Of a stretch of 64,000 nucleotides of DNA, positions 8,219-53,042 are shown one piece after another. The notes under the pieces are model-generated. The model saw only the letters and a program-made list of their open reading frames with translations. It searched no databases and had not been told where the DNA came from. A program made the translations under genes and the position numbers. Source of the DNA: Escherichia phage PBECO4; sequence record KC295538. One strand, written 5' to 3'. Every line of letters starts with the position of its first letter. Positions within the stretch are counted from its first letter, which is position 1.

Positions 8219-8803
8219 TTATCGTGTTATAGTTACGGCTTTTACATCACGCTTTTTATAGTACTGATTCCAGATATTGCGGGTTAAACCGTAATCAAGT
8301 ACTTTAATAAGGCCGTTGCGATCCTGGCCGATATTCTGTTTTCTGATATCTCTTATCGTTAGTGTTGACAGTGTATCATCAACGTGTTGTAGTGCATCAG
8401 CAAAGCGGTGCTGGCGTTCAATAGCATTACGTTTAATATTGTACTTTAATTCGTTGCACGCGTTAACGTGCTTCACACTGCCTTTACTTGCAGTACTCAA
8501 CCGATCCATAACAATAAACATATTATCAGGATCGCTTAAATGCATATGCACTTTAGCGAAGAACTGTTTCAACTGAGGGCGGTCATAGTCTAAAAAATTC
8601 CATACCCTACATTCTGTTTCATTTTGTTCTACACCCGCATCACAATTCGCGACCTTGATCACTAACCGATCATTTAAAGCGAAAACTATACGGGAAGAAC
8701 CCGCACCGATGATCTCCAGACCAGCTAACCGACAAGCTGAAAGGATCTCTTTGTTGGTTTCCATTGCTGACAGGGTACGGATGAATTTAGTATAATTACG
8801 CAT
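8219..8803 (-). CDS. protein kinase-like protein (Hanks-type fold)
   Basis: IGAGSSRIVF glycine loop, VIKV lysine, IRDIRKQNIG catalytic-loop-like, LDYG (DFG-like); start trimmed to ATG 8803 with AAGGAG. Confidence 0.55.
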   Translation of the reverse strand: MRNYTKFIRTLSAMETNKEILSACRLAGLEIIGAGSSRIVFALNDRLVIKVANCDAGVEQNETECRVWNFLDYDRPQLKQFFAKVHMHLSDPDNMFIVMDRLSTASKGSVKHVNACNELKYNIKRNAIERQHRFADALQHVDDTLSTLTIRDIRKQNIGQDRNGLIKVLDYGLTRNIWNQYYKKRDVKAVTITR

Positions 8804-46484: not shown

Positions 46485-47624
46485 TTACAAAATTACTTCA
46501 CCAAAAATACCATTGATATCACGTTCAATGATGTATTCACCTTCATGTTCAGCTAAGAACTTTTTAATGGCTTCGTTAACTTTAGGACGATGAATGTTGT
46601 TGAATGTTTCAGTGCAACCATCTCCCTTTTCATAATAACCTTTATTATATAGTTTACCACATAACGCAATTGTATGTATTATTATTTCCAATTCTCTAGC
46701 AAGTTTCCCACCCACATTCTTATGAAATAAAATGGAAATTTCATTACTCCAAAAATTATCTACTTTATATATTTTTTTATAAGATAAGTTTTGTGGACTT
46801 AATCTTGCTTTAATAGTTTTGTTTGTAATACCAGCTTTATCCGAATTTTTTGCATAATCATTGTGAATATAAAATCTTCCAGGCTTGGAAGTTTTAAATC
46901 CTTTTACTGCACACGTGGGACAACCAGAACCAGACAGATGTGAATTTGGTGTTTGTTGAAATTCACCATGTTCTTTGCATATTATAATAGAGGTTACTTG
47001 GTTGTTAATGTAGTCATATAAAGAATAATCATACTTATTTCCGTGTATAAGATGTGATTTTTTTATAAATTCACCTAAAGTTTGTTTTAAAGTTTGTTTC
47101 GTGCATTCTTGACAACCAATTTTACCAGTAGCTAAGTCAGTAATTGTGGGTTTTTTTATATCACCACAATCATTACATACTACTTCAATTTTAGTTCTAC
47201 TAGGAAGTGTAGAGTTAAACGAAGTTATTCCACTATAAGTAAATTTATCATAACCATATTTTTTGTTGATGACACTAATATGATTAATGGTGTAATATGG
47301 AATATTAATAATATTGTAAAAAATCTTCCCATTAAATCCCTGCCTAATAAAATTCGTGCAGGTGGCTCCAATAACTAACATACCATCGTTATTCACTACA
47401 AGTTTGGTTTTTGATTTAGATATATAATCTTGTGATCTATTGATATAGAATCCAAGAACTCTTGGATCATTTATTTCACCCATAATACTAATAGGATCTT
47501 GAGCAATGTTGGATTTTTTTACAAAATTTATATCTTCGGCTTTCATCCACTCAAAAAGCATTCCATGCTCTTCATAAAAATAAACTTTTTCACCATCTTC
47601 ATTAAAATAGTACTGTTCAAACAT
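46485..47624 (-). CDS. Cys-rich protein with putative zinc-binding motifs (possible nuclease-like; function unknown)
   Basis: CNDCGD...GCQEC and CKEHGEF..HLSGSGCPTC clusters in 379 aa. Confidence 0.5.
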   Translation of the reverse strand: MFEQYYFNEDGEKVYFYEEHGMLFEWMKAEDINFVKKSNIAQDPISIMGEINDPRVLGFYINRSQDYISKSKTKLVVNNDGMLVIGATCTNFIRQGFNGKIFYNIINIPYYTINHISVINKKYGYDKFTYSGITSFNSTLPSRTKIEVVCNDCGDIKKPTITDLATGKIGCQECTKQTLKQTLGEFIKKSHLIHGNKYDYSLYDYINNQVTSIIICKEHGEFQQTPNSHLSGSGCPTCAVKGFKTSKPGRFYIHNDYAKNSDKAGITNKTIKARLSPQNLSYKKIYKVDNFWSNEISILFHKNVGGKLARELEIIIHTIALCGKLYNKGYYEKGDGCTETFNNIHRPKVNEAIKKFLAEHEGEYIIERDINGIFGEVIL

Positions 47625-48340: not shown

Positions 48341-48775
48341 TTAGATCATAGAACGATAATACTCAGGTAACTCAACATCAGTAAATTTATACCACTTAGG
48401 CTTCATCTGGAGCTTCTCAATCAAACGCTCACGAGAGGTTTTAATTTCTGATTCAGATGGTACGTAATCATTACAAAACTCAGCAGGGAAGCTGCTAATG
48501 TCGTTTACTTCAGTGTTTTGAATCTTCATACCACGACGCAAACATTCGTTGACAATATCGATATGACGCTTCTGTAAGTACAGCAACTTGTCGTAAAAGA
48601 ATGTCACATGACCTGAACCCAACAGATAAGTACTGTTAATTTTGAAATCACGTACACGCTTACGTGCTTGAACGTGTTTTTGTACAGCACCAAATACACG
48701 TGGGAGTTCACGATATTCAGCCATCAGGTGTTGGTCAGCAAGTTCTTTAACGTGTACTAAGTTAATGCGTGTCAT
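48341..48775 (-). CDS. denV: endonuclease V (pyrimidine dimer DNA glycosylase/AP lyase), T4 DenV homolog
   Basis: N-terminus [27 protein letters not shown] and [10 protein letters not shown] segment match T4 endonuclease V as I recall it; similar length. Confidence 0.85.
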
Positions 48776-48822
48776 GTATTCATCCTCTCGTTTCGATGAA
48801 ATGATTATAGCAAAAAGGGCTG

Positions 48823-48850
48823 ACCGAAGTCAACCCTTTTCTTTATTCAA
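48823..48850. terminator. TTGACT-containing hairpin element (copy 7)
   Basis: aaaaagggctgaccgaagtcaaccctttt. Confidence 0.5.
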
Positions 48851-49112
48851 TGATCCCCAACTTCACAATCTCATACCCGTCCAGATAGCCATATGAACAC
48901 TCAGGAGTTTCATAGGATGAACCATCATGGATACCCTGGCATTGACTTTTAGAATTCTCAAGAAGTCGTTGCAGTACTGATACGTCCTCAAGAACGTAAC
49001 ACAAGGATACATCTGGGTCTTCCACGATACAGTACTCCAACATATCAAACGTATCAATCGAAATTTCAACCTTGGCAAATCGTTTCTTTTCTTTATTATA
49101 CAGTGCGTACAT
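48843..49112 (-). CDS. hypothetical protein
   Basis: Track ORF 48843..49130 trimmed to MYALYNKEKK.. Confidence 0.5.
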   Translation of the reverse strand: MYALYNKEKKRFAKVEISIDTFDMLEYCIVEDPDVSLCYVLEDVSVLQRLLENSKSQCQGIHDGSSYETPECSYGYLDGYEIVKLGIIE

Positions 49113-49113
49113 A

Positions 49114-49485
49114 TTAATCTCCATAATCAAGTTTAACTAACTTACCACCCAGATACCCAAAGTTTTCTGGCTTCACATCTGAATAGAAGAAGTCAGTACT
49201 TAACTCTGAATTTAATGCTAAAGCACACAACTCCACCCAAAATAAACCCCTATGTTGCACTGGCTTACAACGTTTCTGTACTGTTATTAAACCAGTGCAT
49301 GATGACCACAAAGTAGGGCAGATACCACTATCACTACGATTGGAGTACTGCATCCATGAACGTTCATTGAGGTTAGCTATCATTCCAGTTAGGAATAACT
49401 TCCAGCTTTTGAAGGTTGGAATCTTAATAGCGTATTCCCCAATGAGGATAACAGTTCGGGTTGCACCTTTCAAGTCTATGTTCAT
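49114..49485 (-). CDS. minimal protein kinase-like protein
   Basis: YAIKIP (VAIK-like), DVKPENFG (catalytic loop-like), KLDYGD (DFG-like). Confidence 0.5.
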   Translation of the reverse strand: MNIDLKGATRTVILIGEYAIKIPTFKSWKLFLTGMIANLNERSWMQYSNRSDSGICPTLWSSCTGLITVQKRCKPVQHRGLFWVELCALALNSELSTDFFYSDVKPENFGYLGGKLVKLDYGD

Positions 49486-49487
49486 AT

Positions 49488-49664
49488 TAATAAGAATCAG
49501 ATTCCCAGTACTCGATTGCTTCTTTCAGCAATTCTTTAGCACGTTGTTTTGCAATGCGAGCGGGAAACTGATATGTGTACATTAACTGACGCTTCACTTC
49601 ATTCAGTGAAAGCTGTTCATGGTACAGTGCATCCATCAGTCGATTACGAGTACGTAGTTTCATA
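49488..49664 (-). CDS. hypothetical small protein (58 aa)
   Basis: Own translation MKLRTRNRLMDALYHEQLSL.. Confidence 0.35.
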
Positions 49665-49674
49665 TAAGTTATCC

Positions 49675-50229
49675 TTATTTCAAAGAATCATAGTAAGCAG
49701 TGTCAAAGATTGGAGTCATAATAACATAGTCAATACGGTCAATGTAAGTTGAACTCCACATTTCTGGTTTGTCATATAACTGACGCTCGCGTTCATTCAT
49801 ACGAGTCAGTACTTCTTCCAATTTACTACGTGAATCCATCAATGTATTACTCGAACCATAAGTGAAGTACTCAGTCCAATGATATTCATATTCAGTACTG
49901 ATAGATTGAATAGTACCATCTTTGAAATGAGCTAAGGCATAACCTTTCTCTACAAAGTTATCAGGTGGAAGAACACCATCTGGATTAGTTTTCAATGCTT
50001 GTGCTAACTTTTCTTTAATTTCAGTTAACGTGCATACTGAACGAATGTTCTTCAGGTTTGATACTTGAAAATCACTGTACTTTCCAAAGAAAAATACACG
50101 CCAATCTTTAGGTTCATTATCAGATACGGTAGCATCAGGGTGATGGGCGAGTAAACGAAGAAGGCCAGCTTTGTGACCGTTAATGTAGATTTCATGGATG
50201 TGGTTAGCAGTTTTCTTAAAAGTAATCAT
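49675..50229 (-). CDS. hypothetical protein (184 aa)
   Basis: Track ORF. Confidence 0.6.
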   Translation of the reverse strand: MITFKKTANHIHEIYINGHKAGLLRLLAHHPDATVSDNEPKDWRVFFFGKYSDFQVSNLKNIRSVCTLTEIKEKLAQALKTNPDGVLPPDNFVEKGYALAHFKDGTIQSISTEYEYHWTEYFTYGSSNTLMDSRSKLEEVLTRMNERERQLYDKPEMWSSTYIDRIDYVIMTPIFDTAYYDSLK

Positions 50230-50305
50230 GGTAGTTCCTCGATTGTAGGGATGAGAAGTTCATCCCCTTGATAAGCATTATACAGTACTGAATGTGTTTG
50301 TCAAC

Positions 50306-50701
50306 TCAAAATAAATTCATTTCATGTGCGTATTGTGGTTCAAGATAAGATAAGTTTTTGAAACTGTCTTTCAATTCTGCATCATCTACGTACACAGTAC
50401 CAGGTACATTCCCCATAGTGAAGCCAACCCAAACAGTCATGTTTCCAGTTCCTAAGCGGGGCATTGATAGCGTCCCGTCAGGTGAAACATCAAACGCTAC
50501 ACTAAAGTCATCCGTTACAACTTCCGAACCATTTTCCAGAATAATACAACCACGTTCTTTAAGCTTCTGAATGTGGATAGCAGCCTCTACAGCACGTTTA
50601 AAGTTATAATAAGACTCTTTATCCTCGAACATTGATTGTTTAACCAGACGCTTGTTTAGCTCGGTTACTTTGTGCATTTGACGCATTACTTCAACTCCCA
50701 C
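50306..50701 (-). CDS. hypothetical protein
   Basis: Track ORF. Confidence 0.55.
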   Translation of the reverse strand: MGVEVMRQMHKVTELNKRLVKQSMFEDKESYYNFKRAVEAAIHIQKLKERGCIILENGSEVVTDDFSVAFDVSPDGTLSMPRLGTGNMTVWVGFTMGNVPGTVYVDDAELKDSFKNLSYLEPQYAHEMNLF

Positions 50702-50940
50702 AGTTGTAGAATTTCATAAGAGCCTGGTGGTGCTGGATTGATAATCTCAGGGTATTCAGTACTGTTAGGATTACCACCAGCATTGAACTCAGCAAGTAAT
50801 AATTCGAGTTCATTCCTATCATGTACAACAAACACGCAATATCCAGTTCCTTCTTCAAGAACTGTAGTTGACCCCGCACAATCCCATACGGTATCAATAC
50901 ATAATAATTCTTTAGTGTTTTTATTACGCAACGCAAACAT
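50686..50940 (-). CDS. hypothetical protein
   Basis: Track ORF; preferred over overlapping 50691..50993. Confidence 0.5.
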   Translation of the reverse strand: MFALRNKNTKELLCIDTVWDCAGSTTVLEEGTGYCVFVVHDRNELELLLAEFNAGGNPNSTEYPEIINPAPPGSYEILQLWELK

Positions 50941-50949
50941 ATATGTCTC

Positions 50950-51294
50950 CTATCGATTCGGCATATTCTTTCGTAGTCGCAAGAGAAATTCAACCACTGA
51001 CCATGTTGTAATGAAGGCTATATAAGTTGCAAGGAATCCAGTAAGAATAAATGCAACCAGCGTACTACCATTTGGGGAATCAGTTTTAATGCCGATGACA
51101 CCATCGGCTACAGTGAAACATGTAGCCATTAATGTGTAACCTACGTACAACACAAAGAAAAACTCATTCTCCATTGAAGGATAGAAACGGTTAAACACTT
51201 TATAAAATTTAAAGTACAGTAGGATTATACCAACAAAGGCATAGAATGTAAACAGTGTTGTTATAATATATGAGATTAGGTTCAAATTATACAT
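50950..51294 (-). CDS. small integral membrane protein, family C-like paralog
   Basis: Trimmed to MYNLNLISY..; tail ..LRKNMPNR. Confidence 0.55.
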   Translation of the reverse strand: MYNLNLISYIITTLFTFYAFVGIILLYFKFYKVFNRFYPSMENEFFFVLYVGYTLMATCFTVADGVIGIKTDSPNGSTLVAFILTGFLATYIAFITTWSVVEFLLRLRKNMPNR

Positions 51295-51295
51295 A

Positions 51296-51643
51296 TCAAC
51301 GCTCCGGTAGATTATCACGTAATGTTTTAATTCGATGATACATTTTCATACCAATATTACCAAAGATACCATATCCAAGTACTAAAATGTATGCAATAAG
51401 CATAGTAATAATTACTATAGTGCCAAAACTATAATGTACACTACTGATACCCATTGTAGTTTCAACGATTATTTGAGAAACTGAAAGAATCAAAAGTACA
51501 ACTACAATTGGATGATTTGGGTACATTCGGTTGAACAACGTTTTGTACTTAAAGAAGCACAGTACTCCACCGAATAAGAAGTAAACAATGTAAATGCAAG
51601 CAACAGCATAGGCAAACATGTTAGTGTAATAAATCATTACCAA
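51296..51643 (-). CDS. small integral membrane protein, family C-like paralog
   Basis: Hydrophobic; tail ..LRDNLPER. Confidence 0.55.
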   Translation of the reverse strand: MVMIYYTNMFAYAVACIYIVYFLFGGVLCFFKYKTLFNRMYPNHPIVVVLLILSVSQIIVETTMGISSVHYSFGTIVIITMLIAYILVLGYGIFGNIGMKMYHRIKTLRDNLPER

Positions 51644-51646
51644 TCC

Positions 51647-51985
51647 TTACTTTTCAGGGATATTAGAACGCCATATATCAATGCGATGAACTAGTCCAAA
51701 GAACAACCATACTGGAACGGCAGCTATCATAACAACAAATGAAAACCCAGTCAAGACCGATACCAGATTTAATTCATCAGTACTATACCCACATATCAGT
51801 ACTTCTAATATTCCCCACGTACATGCACAAAACATCAAGAATGAAATTGGGGCATCATAGTAGATACGTTCATATAAAGTAGTGTATCGGAAGAATGCAA
51901 TAATGTAGCAAAACATATAATACACCCAAACCAAAGATACTACATAAAATGATACTTTGTTTATTAATTCAAAATATTGTTCCAT
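51647..51985 (-). CDS. small integral membrane protein, family C-like paralog
   Basis: Hydrophobic; tail ..WRSNIPEK. Confidence 0.55.
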   Translation of the reverse strand: MEQYFELINKVSFYVVSLVWVYYMFCYIIAFFRYTTLYERIYYDAPISFLMFCACTWGILEVLICGYSTDELNLVSVLTGFSFVVMIAAVPVWLFFGLVHRIDIWRSNIPEK

Positions 51986-51987
51986 TT

Positions 51988-52269
51988 TTACCCCAATATA
52001 TATTCAGAGAGTAATGTATTAGCTTCATCTTTGTTCTTAAGGTAATACATGTAATATAGATTCGGTTCACCATCTTTAGCACTCAAATCGAAGTACTTTA
52101 AACTATGTACTTTCATAGTAAAAACAAATAATGACTTAAAACCAATCTCACCGTACTTAATAAACAGTTCATCCAAATGAATGTAACTTTTTGATTTGGA
52201 TAATTCTTTAACGTCTGCATCAATTTCAGATAAAAGATGCTTACCTATTAAGTTTTCAAATGAACGCAT
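51988..52269 (-). CDS. hypothetical protein
   Basis: Track ORF. Confidence 0.55.
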   Translation of the reverse strand: MRSFENLIGKHLLSEIDADVKELSKSKSYIHLDELFIKYGEIGFKSLFVFTMKVHSLKYFDLSAKDGEPNLYYMYYLKNKDEANTLLSEYILG

Positions 52270-52331
52270 GATTTTTATCCTTTACCGCAATTTTTATGGT
52301 TTATTAAGAATACACCAGAATATCAGTTCTG

Positions 52332-52973
52332 TCAATAAAAAACTGGATCTTCTTCAGTAATTGGTATTTCTCTACGTACATCACACGAAAGAGGATCAGT
52401 AATGAATACATTCCCATCTTTATCCATCATCACATTACTTGAATGAATGTCTGGTACAAAACGCCCGTGAAACTCTTTCATGATGTTAGCAGCGACCGTC
52501 GCAATAGCAATCTCTTCAGAATTTCCACGCATATCATTCACTGAAGTAGCGTACTGACCAGCATGTGCATAAGAATATAAATCTCCAATTTTAGTACTAA
52601 CAAAGTCATCATAATTATTTTTTTGTTTAATTATAGGATAGTACTTGTCCATCTCATACCATCCAAAGTTTCCTTGTTCGTTTGCACTGTAGATCACTGG
52701 AAGAAACTTGGTTCCTGCGTTTTCAATGCAGTACTTTGCATAAGCACGAAAACCATCCCAGCGTGAAGTGGTTACTTTAAATGCACGCCCAGGATAGTTT
52801 TTATGTTCAACTACTACAGAGTACATCCCCATTCCAAGCAAAGTAAGTCCAGCAGCTTTAACTTGTGGAAAGATTACGCGTTCAGCATAAGGAATATCAA
52901 ACTCCATCGCACAACGAGTTTTTGATGGACGCAAAATGTCAATTAAAGTTTTGAATATTTCTTGCTTAGTCAT
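52332..52973 (-). CDS. atypical kinase-like protein (phosphotransferase fold)
   Basis: LGMGMYSVVV glycine loop-like, RAFKV lysine, DIHSSNVMMDKDGNVFITD resembling D.H..N...IID of APH/Kdo-kinase-type enzymes; start trimmed to MTKQEIF.. Confidence 0.45.
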   Translation of the reverse strand: MTKQEIFKTLIDILRPSKTRCAMEFDIPYAERVIFPQVKAAGLTLLGMGMYSVVVEHKNYPGRAFKVTTSRWDGFRAYAKYCIENAGTKFLPVIYSANEQGNFGWYEMDKYYPIIKQKNNYDDFVSTKIGDLYSYAHAGQYATSVNDMRGNSEEIAIATVAANIMKEFHGRFVPDIHSSNVMMDKDGNVFITDPLSCDVRREIPITEEDPVFY

Positions 52974-53010
52974 TACTTTATCCTCTGTAGTTAATATCAA
53001 CATCATAACA

Positions 53011-53037
53011 AAAAAGGCTGACCGAAGTCAACCCTTT
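53011..53037. terminator. TTGACT-containing hairpin element (copy 8)
   Basis: aaaaaaggctgaccgaagtcaaccctttt. Confidence 0.5.
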
Positions 53038-53042
53038 TATTA

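Follow-up and report, generated by a model that had tools for sequence, protein, structure and literature searches.

The window analysed here, a 64,000-nucleotide (64-kb) stretch of Escherichia phage PBECO4 (record KC295538), comes from an Asteriusvirus jumbo phage and is about 98% identical to phages 121Q and G17. It carries three kinase-like genes on the minus strand (Table 1), encoding a 123-aa kinase core (hereafter miniK), a protein of 213 or 224 residues (K224) and a 194-aa protein. A sequence-only reading of this DNA had placed kinase-fold proteins in the first two intervals and spoken of three kinase-like genes in 64 kb; the count is right, the third being the 194-aa gene. Both open reading frames exist, but they lie on the minus strand, the plus-strand translations of the same intervals containing many stops. 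The motifs cited for them, YAIKIP, DVKPENFG and KLDYGD in miniK as well as LGMGMYSVVV, RAFKV and DIHSSNVMMDKDGNVFITD in K224, are present in the minus-strand translations. Two of the three kinases have already been recognised in Asteriusvirus-type phages, whereas the 123-aa one has not, being a "hypothetical protein" in every annotated record of this type among those listed.

Table 1. Features of the window; residue numbers of the K224 motifs refer to the 224-aa frame.
Feature	Position	Strand	Remark
miniK, 123-aa kinase core	49114..49485	-	121Q gp215, G17_00098, Sharanji WNN14422.1
miniK Gly-loop variant G7-A-T9-R10	49456..49467	-	G, T/S and R nearly invariant across the family
miniK beta3 (VAIK-type) lysine A19-I-K21	49423..49431	-	K in 157/157 aligned representatives
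miniK E41, presumed salt-bridge partner of K21	49363..49365	-	E in 159/159
miniK catalytic loop D103-V-K105-P-E-N108	49162..49179	-	aligns with TTK D-L-K-P-A-N
miniK D120-Y-G122, DFG equivalent	49120..49128	-	one residue before the chain end
K224/K213, T7 gp0.7-type kinase domain without shut-off domain	52332..52973	-	121Q gp205, G17_00108
K224 Gly-loop G58-M-G60	52827..52835	-	G60 aligns with T7K G76
K224 beta3 lysine F76-K77-V78	52773..52781	-	aligns with T7K R-V-I-K-V
K224 catalytic loop D186-I-H188-S-S-N191	52434..52451	-	aligns with T7K D-M-H-S-G-N
K224 DFG-like D204-P-L206	52389..52397	-	DPV in T7K
Third kinase, 194 aa, longer miniK paralogue	8219..8803	-	121Q gp308
Hairpin-plus-promoter module (GGGTTGACTTCGGTCAGCC, T-run, TATGAT)	53002..53040	-	directly upstream of K224
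Second copy of the same module	48804..48840	-	downstream of the gene after miniK

K224 and miniK stand in one minus-strand gene block, running from about 53.0 to 48.8 kb, whose upstream and downstream boundaries are the two copies of the hairpin-plus-promoter module. In G17, terminators are annotated upstream of the kinase gene and at the place equivalent to the downstream copy, and the reading of the block as an operon is based on the repeated module together with these annotations; the promoter scan as a whole gave 23 sites against 23.6 expected, which is not above chance. The gene after miniK (PHROG 8563) starts 1 nt past the miniK stop codon, and the DYG codons of miniK double as its GGAG Shine-Dalgarno sequence. 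As for K224, the 213-aa reading begins at the second ATG of a 224-aa open reading frame (52332..53006). This start is likelier than the one at 53006, because most homologues are 213 aa long and start with MTK, the G17 homologue is annotated in this way, GAGGA lies 8 nt upstream of the ATG at 52973, and a promoter-like -10 element (TATGAT, 53007..53002) overlaps the upstream ATG.

That K224 is a kinase of the T7 gp0.7 type (T7K) is already known from published work. Its homologue is annotated as "protein kinase" in 121Q and G17, the G17 homologue is among the jumbophage T7K homologues that lost the shut-off (SO) domain (Nature 2026, PMC13645617), and a T7K-type kinase was also recognised in this phage group in the Sharanji paper (PMC11895373). 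In our searches K224 matched PHROG 15752 "protein kinase" (E 1e-98) and PHROG 2828, the T7K family (E 9e-17), and aligned with T7 gp0.7 by BLASTP (27% identity, E 5e-9) and with its kinase domain by hhalign (98.6%, E 5e-16), with the catalytic motifs, four in number, all in register. No Pfam family was matched, even at E<=10; the family identifiers of T7 gp0.7 are PHROG 2828/15752, CDD PHA00451 and Pfam PF27024, the last precomputed on homologues. The AF2 model (pLDDT 91) returned 180 Foldseek matches in the PDB at E<=1e-3, the best 50 of which are all kinases or phosphotransferases, and G58, G60, K77, D186, H188, N191 and D204 are invariant among 19 homologues. The assignment of K224 to the Ser/Thr protein kinase domains of T7 gp0.7 type replaces the resemblance to APH, Kdo-kinase or RIO-type enzymes suggested earlier.

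K224 and T7 gp0.7 share, in register, the LGxG loop, R-x-[FI]-K-V, D-x-H-S-x-N and I-T-D-P-[VL]. Both have the glycine at G60/G76, whose replacement in T7K (G76F) is catalytically dead (PMC13645617), and the serine directly after DP[VL], where S207 of K224 aligns with Ser216, at which T7K autophosphorylates. In either protein, about 20-27 residues separate the DFG-like motif from the end of the chain. On the other hand, K224 has another N-terminal helical region and belongs to a myovirus genome of about 350 kb, whereas T7 gp0.7 is an early-region gene product of an Autographiviridae phage. By homology, K224 would most likely phosphorylate host proteins, and possibly phage proteins, which is predicted to favour host takeover and to disarm defences. 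Two features speak against its acting as T7K does: it belongs to a diverged jumbophage clade with DPL rather than DPV, and it is devoid of the C-terminal shut-off/DNA-binding domain, which directs T7K to its substrates.

The 194-aa protein displays a GSSR loop, VIKV, DIRKQN and LDYG, and then a 22-aa C-terminal tail. It matched PHROG 4301 (E 1.4e-42) and, over the whole core, the miniK family by hhalign (96%, E 4.5e-9), while its match to Pfam Pkinase is sub-threshold (E 0.002); in some records it is annotated as a protein kinase. Both proteins possess G-x-[ST]-R, [AV]-I-K, N-x-x-E, V-M-x-R, D-x-K-x-x-N-x-G and L-D-Y-G, and both lack everything that canonical kinases carry after DFG. Besides its tail, the 194-aa protein differs from miniK by an N-terminal extension of about 25 aa and a helical insert of about 30 aa before the catalytic loop, and it is confined to RaK2/121Q-like jumbo phages (56 records), in contrast to miniK, which occurs in many phage families.

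miniK is a kinase-fold protein, for which the earlier label "minimal" is apt. It consists of beta1-beta3, alphaC, beta4-beta5, one long helix, the catalytic loop, a beta-hairpin, DYG, one further residue and the stop (...KLDYGD*), without activation segment, P+1 loop or alphaF-alphaI. For its AF2 model (pLDDT 89.1, pTM 0.78, built on only 14 sequences), the best 50 Foldseek matches in the PDB are all kinases, with probability about 1, and miniK is shorter than any solved kinase chain it matched. No Pfam match was obtained, even at E 10, so that it has no Pfam family, and no sequence relationship to the T7 gp0.7 family was detected. The only sequence-level PDB match, a marginal one, is TTK (E 0.04), with catalytic loop and DFG in register; D-x-K-P-x-N-F...D-Y-G of the family profile aligns with D-L-K-P-A-N-F...D-F-G of TTK. 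Across 160 divergent representatives, K21, E41, D120, G7, R10, N38 and G110 are conserved. Profile searches and structure prediction, the checks proposed in the sequence-only reading, found kinase fold or homology for both proteins, and the motifs it named correspond to catalytic elements (beta3 Lys, catalytic loop, DFG-equivalent Asp), in register with TTK in miniK and with T7 gp0.7 in K224. Because these motifs are invariant or nearly so in homologues, the catalytic residues align and kinase folds are matched over the full chains, they are not a product of chance.

miniK belongs to a large uncharacterised family whose members are kinase cores ending directly behind DFG. An exhaustive profile search collected 1210 clusters (50% identity) at E<=1e-3, 639 of them at E<=1e-10, with a median length of 123 aa; of the 154 representatives aligned as far as the end of the profile, 130 (84%) stop within three residues of that point or of DYG. 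The family (PHROG 4301) was found only in phages and prophages by these searches and is apparently phage-borne. miniK occurs in 116 phage records from unrelated lineages and in 33 IMG/VR contigs, and a lambdoid Salmonella prophage carries a homologue between Rz and Nu1, the moron position. Its versions from Vequintavirinae, Tequatrovirus and Schitoviridae phages share 67-79% identity, and no conserved neighbour gene emerged from 42 loci compared. Almost every record listed labels it "hypothetical protein", three, all non-Asteriusvirus, say "kinase", and a literature search found no paper on the family and no biochemical data for miniK or its homologues. The residues of the catalytic loop vary together (D-K-N in 82 sequences, E-K-S in 42, mixed in 6), and this coupled substitution speaks for selection to keep the active site working. 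As about one-third of the family has E-x-K-x-x-S, and the Lys of D-x-K-x-x-N is replaced in a few members, the chemistry may differ from that of a standard protein kinase.

Fold, homology, conserved residues and the size and spread of the family are what the analysis shows; with regard to catalytic activity, substrate type and biological role, we infer that miniK is most likely a phosphotransferase, minimal and without regulation, whose targets are those of the host. The K21-E41 pair and the G-x-T-R loop would keep ATP in place between the lobes, Mg2+ would be held by D120 and N108, and the gamma-phosphate would pass to a hydroxyl through catalysis by D103 and K105. Without regulatory or substrate-docking elements miniK would be constitutively "on", and it would either be broadly promiscuous or need its target to provide the surface that it lacks; as its gene behaves like a horizontally mobile accessory gene that stands alone, its role is likely to be host-directed. 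In canonical kinases both hydrophobic spines are anchored by the alphaF helix, and to our knowledge no characterised kinase works without any C-lobe helices after DFG. A kinase ending at DFG is plausible, since T7K is hyperactive by experiment with a kinase domain of residues 1-242 and DPV at 213-215 (PMC13645617), and in the K224 model, too, no helix follows DPL. T7K-type domains do possess further helices, at the N-terminus and ahead of the catalytic loop (K224 residues 138-179), that have no counterpart in miniK.

It is unlikely that miniK is instead an ATPase or nucleotide-dependent switch docking on a host complex. RIO kinases on pre-40S particles and Bud32 in KEOPS are small, lack activation loops and act mainly via ATP binding and hydrolysis; the miniK model likewise offers no substrate-binding groove, its conserved ATP and Mg ligands would be needed by an ATPase just as much, and the want of a conserved phage partner would fit a host one. 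However, PDB profile searches and Pfam (no RIO1 or Bud32-type match) revealed no sequence relationship to these proteins, the loop is of the Ser/Thr-kinase D-x-K-x-x-N type, and the marginal PDB sequence matches are to a protein kinase. Phosphorylation of a non-protein substrate, such as an RNA 2'-OH or 5'-OH, a nucleotide serving as immune signal or some other small molecule, seems less likely still. Archaeal ArkI/Ark1 are tRNA kinases, and APH, Kdo-kinase and choline-kinase act on small molecules; the modelled active site of miniK is open, without peptide-binding elements, and its gene lies directly upstream of the RNA ligase gene rnlB in T4-like JS10 and near a tRNA cluster in Tequatrovirus PaulHMueller. 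The ligase adjacency is a single case, however, set against the 42 loci, and the sequence searches gave no match to the APH, ChoK or Kdo families. Moreover, the usual motif in small-molecule kinases of this fold is D-x-x-x-x-N, whereas the Lys in miniK's D-x-K-x-x-N is typical of protein Ser/Thr kinases.

An inert decoy or pseudokinase, binding and blocking a host protein (e.g., a defence kinase or trigger) or sequestering nucleotides, is quite improbable. Small, mobile accessory genes in hypervariable or moron positions, like miniK, are typical of anti-defence inhibitors, and the absent C-lobe could preclude catalysis; but pseudokinases typically lose catalytic residues, whereas every one is kept over more than 150 divergent representatives with coupled D/N-to-E/S change, and PADLOC gave no matches. 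That miniK is a decayed fragment, or the N-terminal half of a split kinase with its C-lobe encoded nearby, might be read from its end exactly at DFG, the closely following gene and a few longer relatives (Kc263, 267 aa; OBP, 273 aa), but is effectively refuted by a length of about 120 aa and a C-terminus that recur across unrelated phage families, by the PHROG 8563 gene not being kept beside miniK elsewhere, and by the Kc263 and OBP extensions being lineage-specific, with no match to a Pfam family or within the window.

On balance, the gene block probably holds two kinase-fold enzymes unrelated in sequence, the T7K-type K224 and the core-only, host-directed phosphotransferase miniK. Among known systems, the minimal bacterial effector kinases OspG/NleH and HopBF1 retain C-lobe helices after DFG, and their solved chains have 169-176 residues, compared with 123 in miniK, which has a single residue past its DFG equivalent. 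They are type III secreted effectors that act in eukaryotic cells, and PDB profile searches detected no sequence similarity between them and miniK. RIO and Bud32 proteins, of 220-270 aa with a helical C-lobe, are universal cellular proteins, and their G-loop and catalytic-loop signatures differ from those of miniK. The best fold matches of miniK are Hanks-type Ser/Thr kinases (PF00069; e.g., TTK/MPS1, PknB); it differs from them in having G-x-T-R instead of GxGxxG in the G-loop and in lacking subdomains VIII-XI (APE, the alphaF Asp, alphaG-alphaI), while its signatures Y-S-D-V-K-P-E-N and D-Y-G are of the ePK Ser/Thr type.

Translation recovered both open reading frames of the sequence-only reading at the coordinates it had given them, on the minus strand instead of the plus strand, where translations are broken by stops throughout. 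The first encodes miniK, a 123-aa kinase-fold protein in which YAIKIP, DVKPENFG and a C-terminal KLDYGD all fall within one product; the second encodes K224, a protein of 213 or 224 aa depending on the start, with LGMGMYSVVV, RAFKV and DIHSSNVMMDKDGNVFITD (motif residues are numbered here in the 224-aa frame). Every gene in this 4.5-kb stretch has the same minus orientation, and the stretch shares 98-99% identity with Asteriusvirus-type jumbo coliphages and Salmonella relatives (121Q, G17, PBECO4-like, Sharanji, UB). Judging from sequence, the 213-aa start of K224 seems better than the upstream one, since the majority of homologues are 213 aa long with the N-terminus MTK, the same start is annotated in G17, and the upstream ATG overlaps a promoter-like -10 element.

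Coordinates of the kinase genes, neighbouring features, the repeated hairpin core and selected miniK homologues (L-numbers denote loci taken from other phages)
Feature	Coordinates	Strand	Remarks
miniK	49114..49485	-	123 aa; = 121Q gp215, G17_00098, Sharanji WNN14422.1
K224	52332..52973 (to 53006 for 224 aa)	-	= 121Q gp205, G17_00108
Third kinase	8219..8803	-	194 aa; = 121Q gp308
Hairpin core GGTTGACTTCGGTCAGCC, first six of 12 starts	5928, 8185, 11404, 15024, 46104, 47894	-	
Hairpin core GGTTGACTTCGGTCAGCC, last six of 12 starts	48818, 53016, 54105, 55682, 55865, 59107	-	
Tandem paralogues (three)	50950..51318, 51296..51643, 51647..51985	-	112-122 aa
Gene directly after miniK	48843..49112	-	89 aa; PHROG 8563
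Weak paralogue of the preceding	50686..50940	-	84 aa
DenV-type pyrimidine-dimer glycosylase	48341..48775	-	two genes downstream of miniK
Cys-rich ORF	46485..47624	-	379 aa; endonuclease-like motifs
Locus of miniK homologue and rnlB, phage JS10 (T4-like)	L006 2477..3854		homologue directly upstream of RNA ligase 2 (rnlB)
miniK homologue, Tequatrovirus PaulHMueller/Bas45	L013 2501..2881		variable region between ipI and tRNA cluster
miniK relative, Kosakonia phage Kc263	L008 2441..3244		267 aa; C-terminal extension
miniK relative, Pseudomonas phage OBP	L016 2441..3262		273 aa; C-terminal extension

The kinase-fold reading of both proteins is upheld by their catalytic motifs, their model folds and their alignment to TTK or to the T7 gp0.7 protein kinase. 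The AF2 model of miniK, built on a 14-sequence alignment (pLDDT 89.1, pTM 0.78), runs through beta1-beta3, a long alphaC, beta4-beta5, one long helix, a short helix, the catalytic loop and a beta-hairpin, at which the chain ends. As modelled, the protein has the bilobal, ATP-binding protein-kinase-like fold, with a five-stranded N-lobe plus alphaC, and with catalytic and Mg-binding loops on a beta-hairpin. All top Foldseek matches were protein kinases (TTK, Lpg2603, WbdD, PKA; probability ~1). A family profile of 145 sequences aligned D-A-K-P-x-N-F-G...I-D-Y-G to D-L-K-P-A-N-F...I-D-F-G of TTK, in matches of marginal strength. Hanks subdomains II, III, VIb and VII are present, with K21, E41, D103, K105, N108 and D120 conserved, while the Gly-rich loop reads G7-x-[TS]9-R10, a single Gly with a near-invariant Arg in place of the GxGxxG consensus. 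Misalignment with kinase catalytic residues, which would speak against a kinase, was not found; because the motifs align with the catalytic loop and DFG of TTK and the fold matches kinases, they are the catalytic residues themselves.

In miniK, subdomains VIII-XI, comprising the activation segment/APE, the alphaF Asp and alphaG-alphaI, are absent: the chain stops one residue past DYG, and the model is empty after beta8. No Pfam family matched at E<=10 (the gathering threshold of PF00069 was not reached). Pkinase is missing from the 25 most-matched Pfam families listed for the 145 family members, and matches to PIP49_C and ABC1, both kinase-like, were sporadic and sub-threshold. NCBIfam and PADLOC returned nothing useful, nor did a PDB sequence search with the small alignment. 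miniK does match PHROG 4301 (E 4.6e-44), aligning to positions 40-167 of the 225 in that profile.

miniK is a family rather than a fragment. When 1.84 billion representative proteins were searched exhaustively with an HMM, 1210 clusters matched at E<=1e-3 and 639 at E<=1e-10; the best 160 have a median length of 123 aa, and the C-terminus lies within 3 residues of the profile end, directly after DYG, in 130 of the 154 representatives (84%) that reach it. Across divergent sequences, conservation extends to G7, T/S9, R10, K21, P23, N38, E41, G65, R72, D/E103, K105, N/S108, G110, D120, Y121 and G122. The catalytic loop reads D-x-K-x-x-N in 82 sequences and E-x-K-x-x-S in 42, with 6 mixed; such a coupled change is expected of an active site under selection. 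Every annotated Asteriusvirus-type record listed, like every named cluster member, calls the protein "hypothetical protein", and three records outside Asteriusvirus carry homologues auto-annotated as Ser/Thr or "STE family" kinases. No description of the family was found in the literature on PHROG 4301, minimal or smallest kinases, phage kinases without an activation loop, or anti-defence phage kinases. By sequence and model, miniK is an extreme, reduced form of the protein-kinase-like fold. Its large family, seen in these searches just in phages and prophages, is predicted to be catalytic.

The family is widely scattered. By tblastn, miniK occurs in 116 deposited phage genomes, including Asteriusvirus, Tequatrovirus/Dhakavirus (T4-like), Vequintavirinae, Schitoviridae, PaMx11-group Pseudomonas siphoviruses, OBP, Ralstonia RP12/RP31, and phages of Aeromonas, Erwinia, Rhizobium and Shewanella, and 33 IMG/VR contigs carry it too. 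In a lambdoid Salmonella prophage a homologue is placed between Rz and Nu1, where morons are classically found. No homologue was confirmed when bacterial contigs, one genome per species, were scanned twice; these scans, being pattern-limited, are weak evidence that the family is restricted to phages. In an all-vs-all ORF comparison around 42 miniK loci, miniK alone was common to different lineages, and its identity of 67-79% among three unrelated coliphage families points to its horizontal spread as a stand-alone gene. The "virion structural protein" label encountered in a Shewanella phage belongs to the neighbouring gene and was set aside.

Several local associations were observed among the homologues. 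DenV homologues lie <3 kb from miniK in PaMx11-like Pseudomonas contigs (L036, L038, L039, L042, L043) as well as near it in the window; this proximity is found in just two lineages and may be coincidence. The neighbours in JS10 and PaulHMueller are a possible hint of an RNA-related role, with a linkage that is not conserved. Kc263 and OBP represent an extended subfamily (including protein P0176) with ~65-130 aa beyond DYG, conserved and lineage-specific. The two proteins share 47% identity over an aligned ~250 residues, and the two phages also have in common a conserved ORF that overlaps the gene in a different frame. The extension does not resemble a kinase C-lobe; the whole Kc263 protein has no Pfam match, and the two extensions match nothing in the window.

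K224, which the sequence-only reading had likened to APH, Kdo-kinase or RIO-type enzymes, is better described as a T7 gp0.7-type protein kinase domain, an assignment made from sequence comparison. It matches PHROG 15752 (protein kinase) at E 1e-98 and PHROG 2828 (T7 kinase family) at E 9e-17. BLASTP against T7 gp0.7 gave E 5e-9 with 27% identity between residues 52-207 and T7 residues 68-216, and hhalign, profile against sequence, gave 98.6% (E 5e-16). LGxG, R-x-[FI]-K-V, D-x-H-S-x-N and I-T-D-P-[VL] are in register in the two proteins. G58, G60, K77, D186, H188, N191 and D204 are invariant over 19 homologues; G58, G60, K77 and the DxHxxN motif align with G74, G76, the Lys and DMHSGN of the T7 kinase, whose G76F mutant, altered at the residue aligned with G60, is catalytically dead (PMC13645617). 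S207 aligns with the T7 autophosphorylation site Ser216. In the DFG-like motif D204-P-L206 the Asp is invariant and the Pro and Leu occur in >=90% of homologues, the Leu standing where T7 has the Val of DPV, a residue that the jumbophage clade has lost or conserves less well (PMC13645617). The AF2 model reached a pLDDT of 91.2, and the best PDB matches listed by Foldseek were protein kinases, plus APH(3')-IIIa at rank 10.

The APH/Kdo-kinase/RIO identity was rejected: no Pfam (E<=10), relevant NCBIfam or PDB sequence match pointed to it, and APH(3')-IIIa is one fold neighbour amid many protein kinases. K224 had zero Pfam matches of any kind at E<=10, nothing in NCBIfam or PADLOC, and no PDB sequence match with a small-alignment profile; PF27024, precomputed on K224 homologues, was absent from the Pfam copy searched. 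The host shut-off/DNA-binding domain is not present, as the chain stops 18 residues past DPL and homologues are all 211-237 aa, in line with the loss of the shut-off domain reported for jumbophage homologues (PMC13645617). This domain is a defining feature of the full-length T7 protein and not of the family of kinase domains. For K224 the finding is correct yet already known, the protein adding a further member to a jumbophage clade that has been published: 121Q gp205 is annotated "protein kinase; inhibitor of host transcription...", G17_00108 "putative protein kinase, PHA00451", and the Sharanji genome paper calls the gene a T7 kinase homologue (PMC11895373).

A third kinase, of 194 aa, links miniK to a longer form. 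It matches PHROG 4301 over positions 10-185 (as the 194/213-aa paralogue) and Pfam Pkinase below threshold. In hhalign its family and that of miniK prove homologous throughout the core (96%, E 4.5e-9), and both have L-D-Y-G and the uncommon G-x-[ST]-R loop. Compared with miniK, the 194-aa protein is extended at the N-terminus, has additional residues inserted ahead of the catalytic loop and ends in a 22-aa tail. It is confined to RaK2/121Q-like jumbo phages, is annotated as a kinase in some records, and is possibly the "another protein kinase" mentioned in the Sharanji paper (PMC11895373). In several RaK2-like genomes (e.g., fENko-Kae01, Muenster, vB_Ec-M-J) this gene lies inside annotated direct terminal repeats, giving two copies per record, a location that suggests very early expression. 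Profile-profile comparison found no relationship between the miniK and T7-like families, and hence derivation of miniK from the T7 kinase is not claimed; the 194-aa kinase gave a collinear, non-significant alignment with the T7-like family. Since miniK is homologous to the 194-aa kinase and neither is significantly related to the T7-like family, the profile comparisons indicate that the phage has two independent lineages of kinase, and that the one shared by miniK and the 194-aa protein comes in a minimal and a long version.

K224 and miniK share a block of 13 genes, all in the same direction. Either end of this block is marked by a copy of a repeated element, GGGTTGACTTCGGTCAGCCC plus a T-run, followed ~5 nt on by TATAAT or TATGAT, with a -35-like TTGACT within the hairpin stem; the T-run and TATAAT/TATGAT were seen in the two copies taken in full (53016, 48818). 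The 18-nt hairpin core GGTTGACTTCGGTCAGCC occurs 12 times in the window (<=3 mismatches), always on the minus, coding strand, against 0 expected by chance, and for at least two of the copies G17 has an annotated terminator at the same place. From its sequence, this terminator-like hairpin appears to double as a promoter and to punctuate gene blocks. A sigma-70 promoter scan was overall not above chance, significance being limited to the repeated hairpin-promoter module. miniK is tightly packed, with 1-nt gaps to its neighbours, and its DYGD codons hold the Shine-Dalgarno of the next gene. That next gene and its weak paralogue share 29.5% identity over the full length (E 0.009), and in other phages it is not beside miniK. 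The three tandem paralogues between K224 and miniK encode small, hydrophobic, apparently multi-pass membrane proteins with 23-33% mutual identity. The Cys-rich ORF is probably a mobile homing-endonuclease insertion; the region varies in length among relatives, where counterparts are variously labelled endonuclease, HNH endonuclease, restriction enzyme or hypothetical protein.

As to mechanism, miniK would bind Mg-ATP via the K21-E41 pair, with N108 and D120 as metal ligands, and would activate a hydroxyl through D103 and K105, operating without regulatory or peptide-docking parts. Its target or a host partner may be required to shield the surface normally buried by alphaF; cover of the exposed helix 79-92 by a host protein, or by a second miniK in a homodimer, would account for stability in the absence of alphaF. 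The T7 kinase is by experiment hyperactive and motif-independent, with a kinase domain ending ~27 residues past its DFG-like motif, and the K224 model predicts no helix past DPL, which together offer a precedent for a reduced post-DFG kinase. By this analogy, and given that the ATP/Mg and catalytic residues are kept, we favour miniK as a putative constitutively active minimal phosphotransferase on host targets. The broader proposal, that the family (core ~115 aa, ~50 residues below the shortest solved kinase chains matched) would be a self-sufficient active kinase-fold enzyme, the smallest known, which many unrelated phages use as an unregulated promiscuous host-modifying or anti-defence kinase, is put forward tentatively; we would sooner expect it to need revision than to hold in full. 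Rival readings would make miniK an ATPase or switch in the manner of RIO/Bud32, or a kinase acting on RNA or small molecules, as ArkI and APH do. An inert decoy is disfavoured by the conserved catalytic residues, and a gene fragment or split kinase is effectively refuted by the length conserved across the family and by the lack of a conserved neighbour at the 42 loci.

Of the two proteins, K224 is ordinary and miniK is the interesting part. If active, miniK would imply that phosphotransfer can do without the entire C-lobe beyond the DFG (activation segment, alphaF-alphaI), would set a lower size limit for the protein-kinase fold, and would provide a natural experiment separating the catalytic from the regulatory and substrate-selecting kinase elements; it is attractive as a minimal engineering scaffold as well. 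With >1200 clusters over many phage families, it represents a sizeable portion of phage "dark matter", now with a testable biochemical hypothesis. No sequence homology was found between miniK and the minimal effector kinases OspG/NleH and HopBF1. The T7 kinase has recently been shown to disarm defence systems through mass phosphorylation, which makes miniK, as a second, independent and widely transferred lineage, an obvious candidate for host takeover or anti-defence. If active, it would play a role analogous to that of the T7 kinase while coming from a different and far more reduced lineage.
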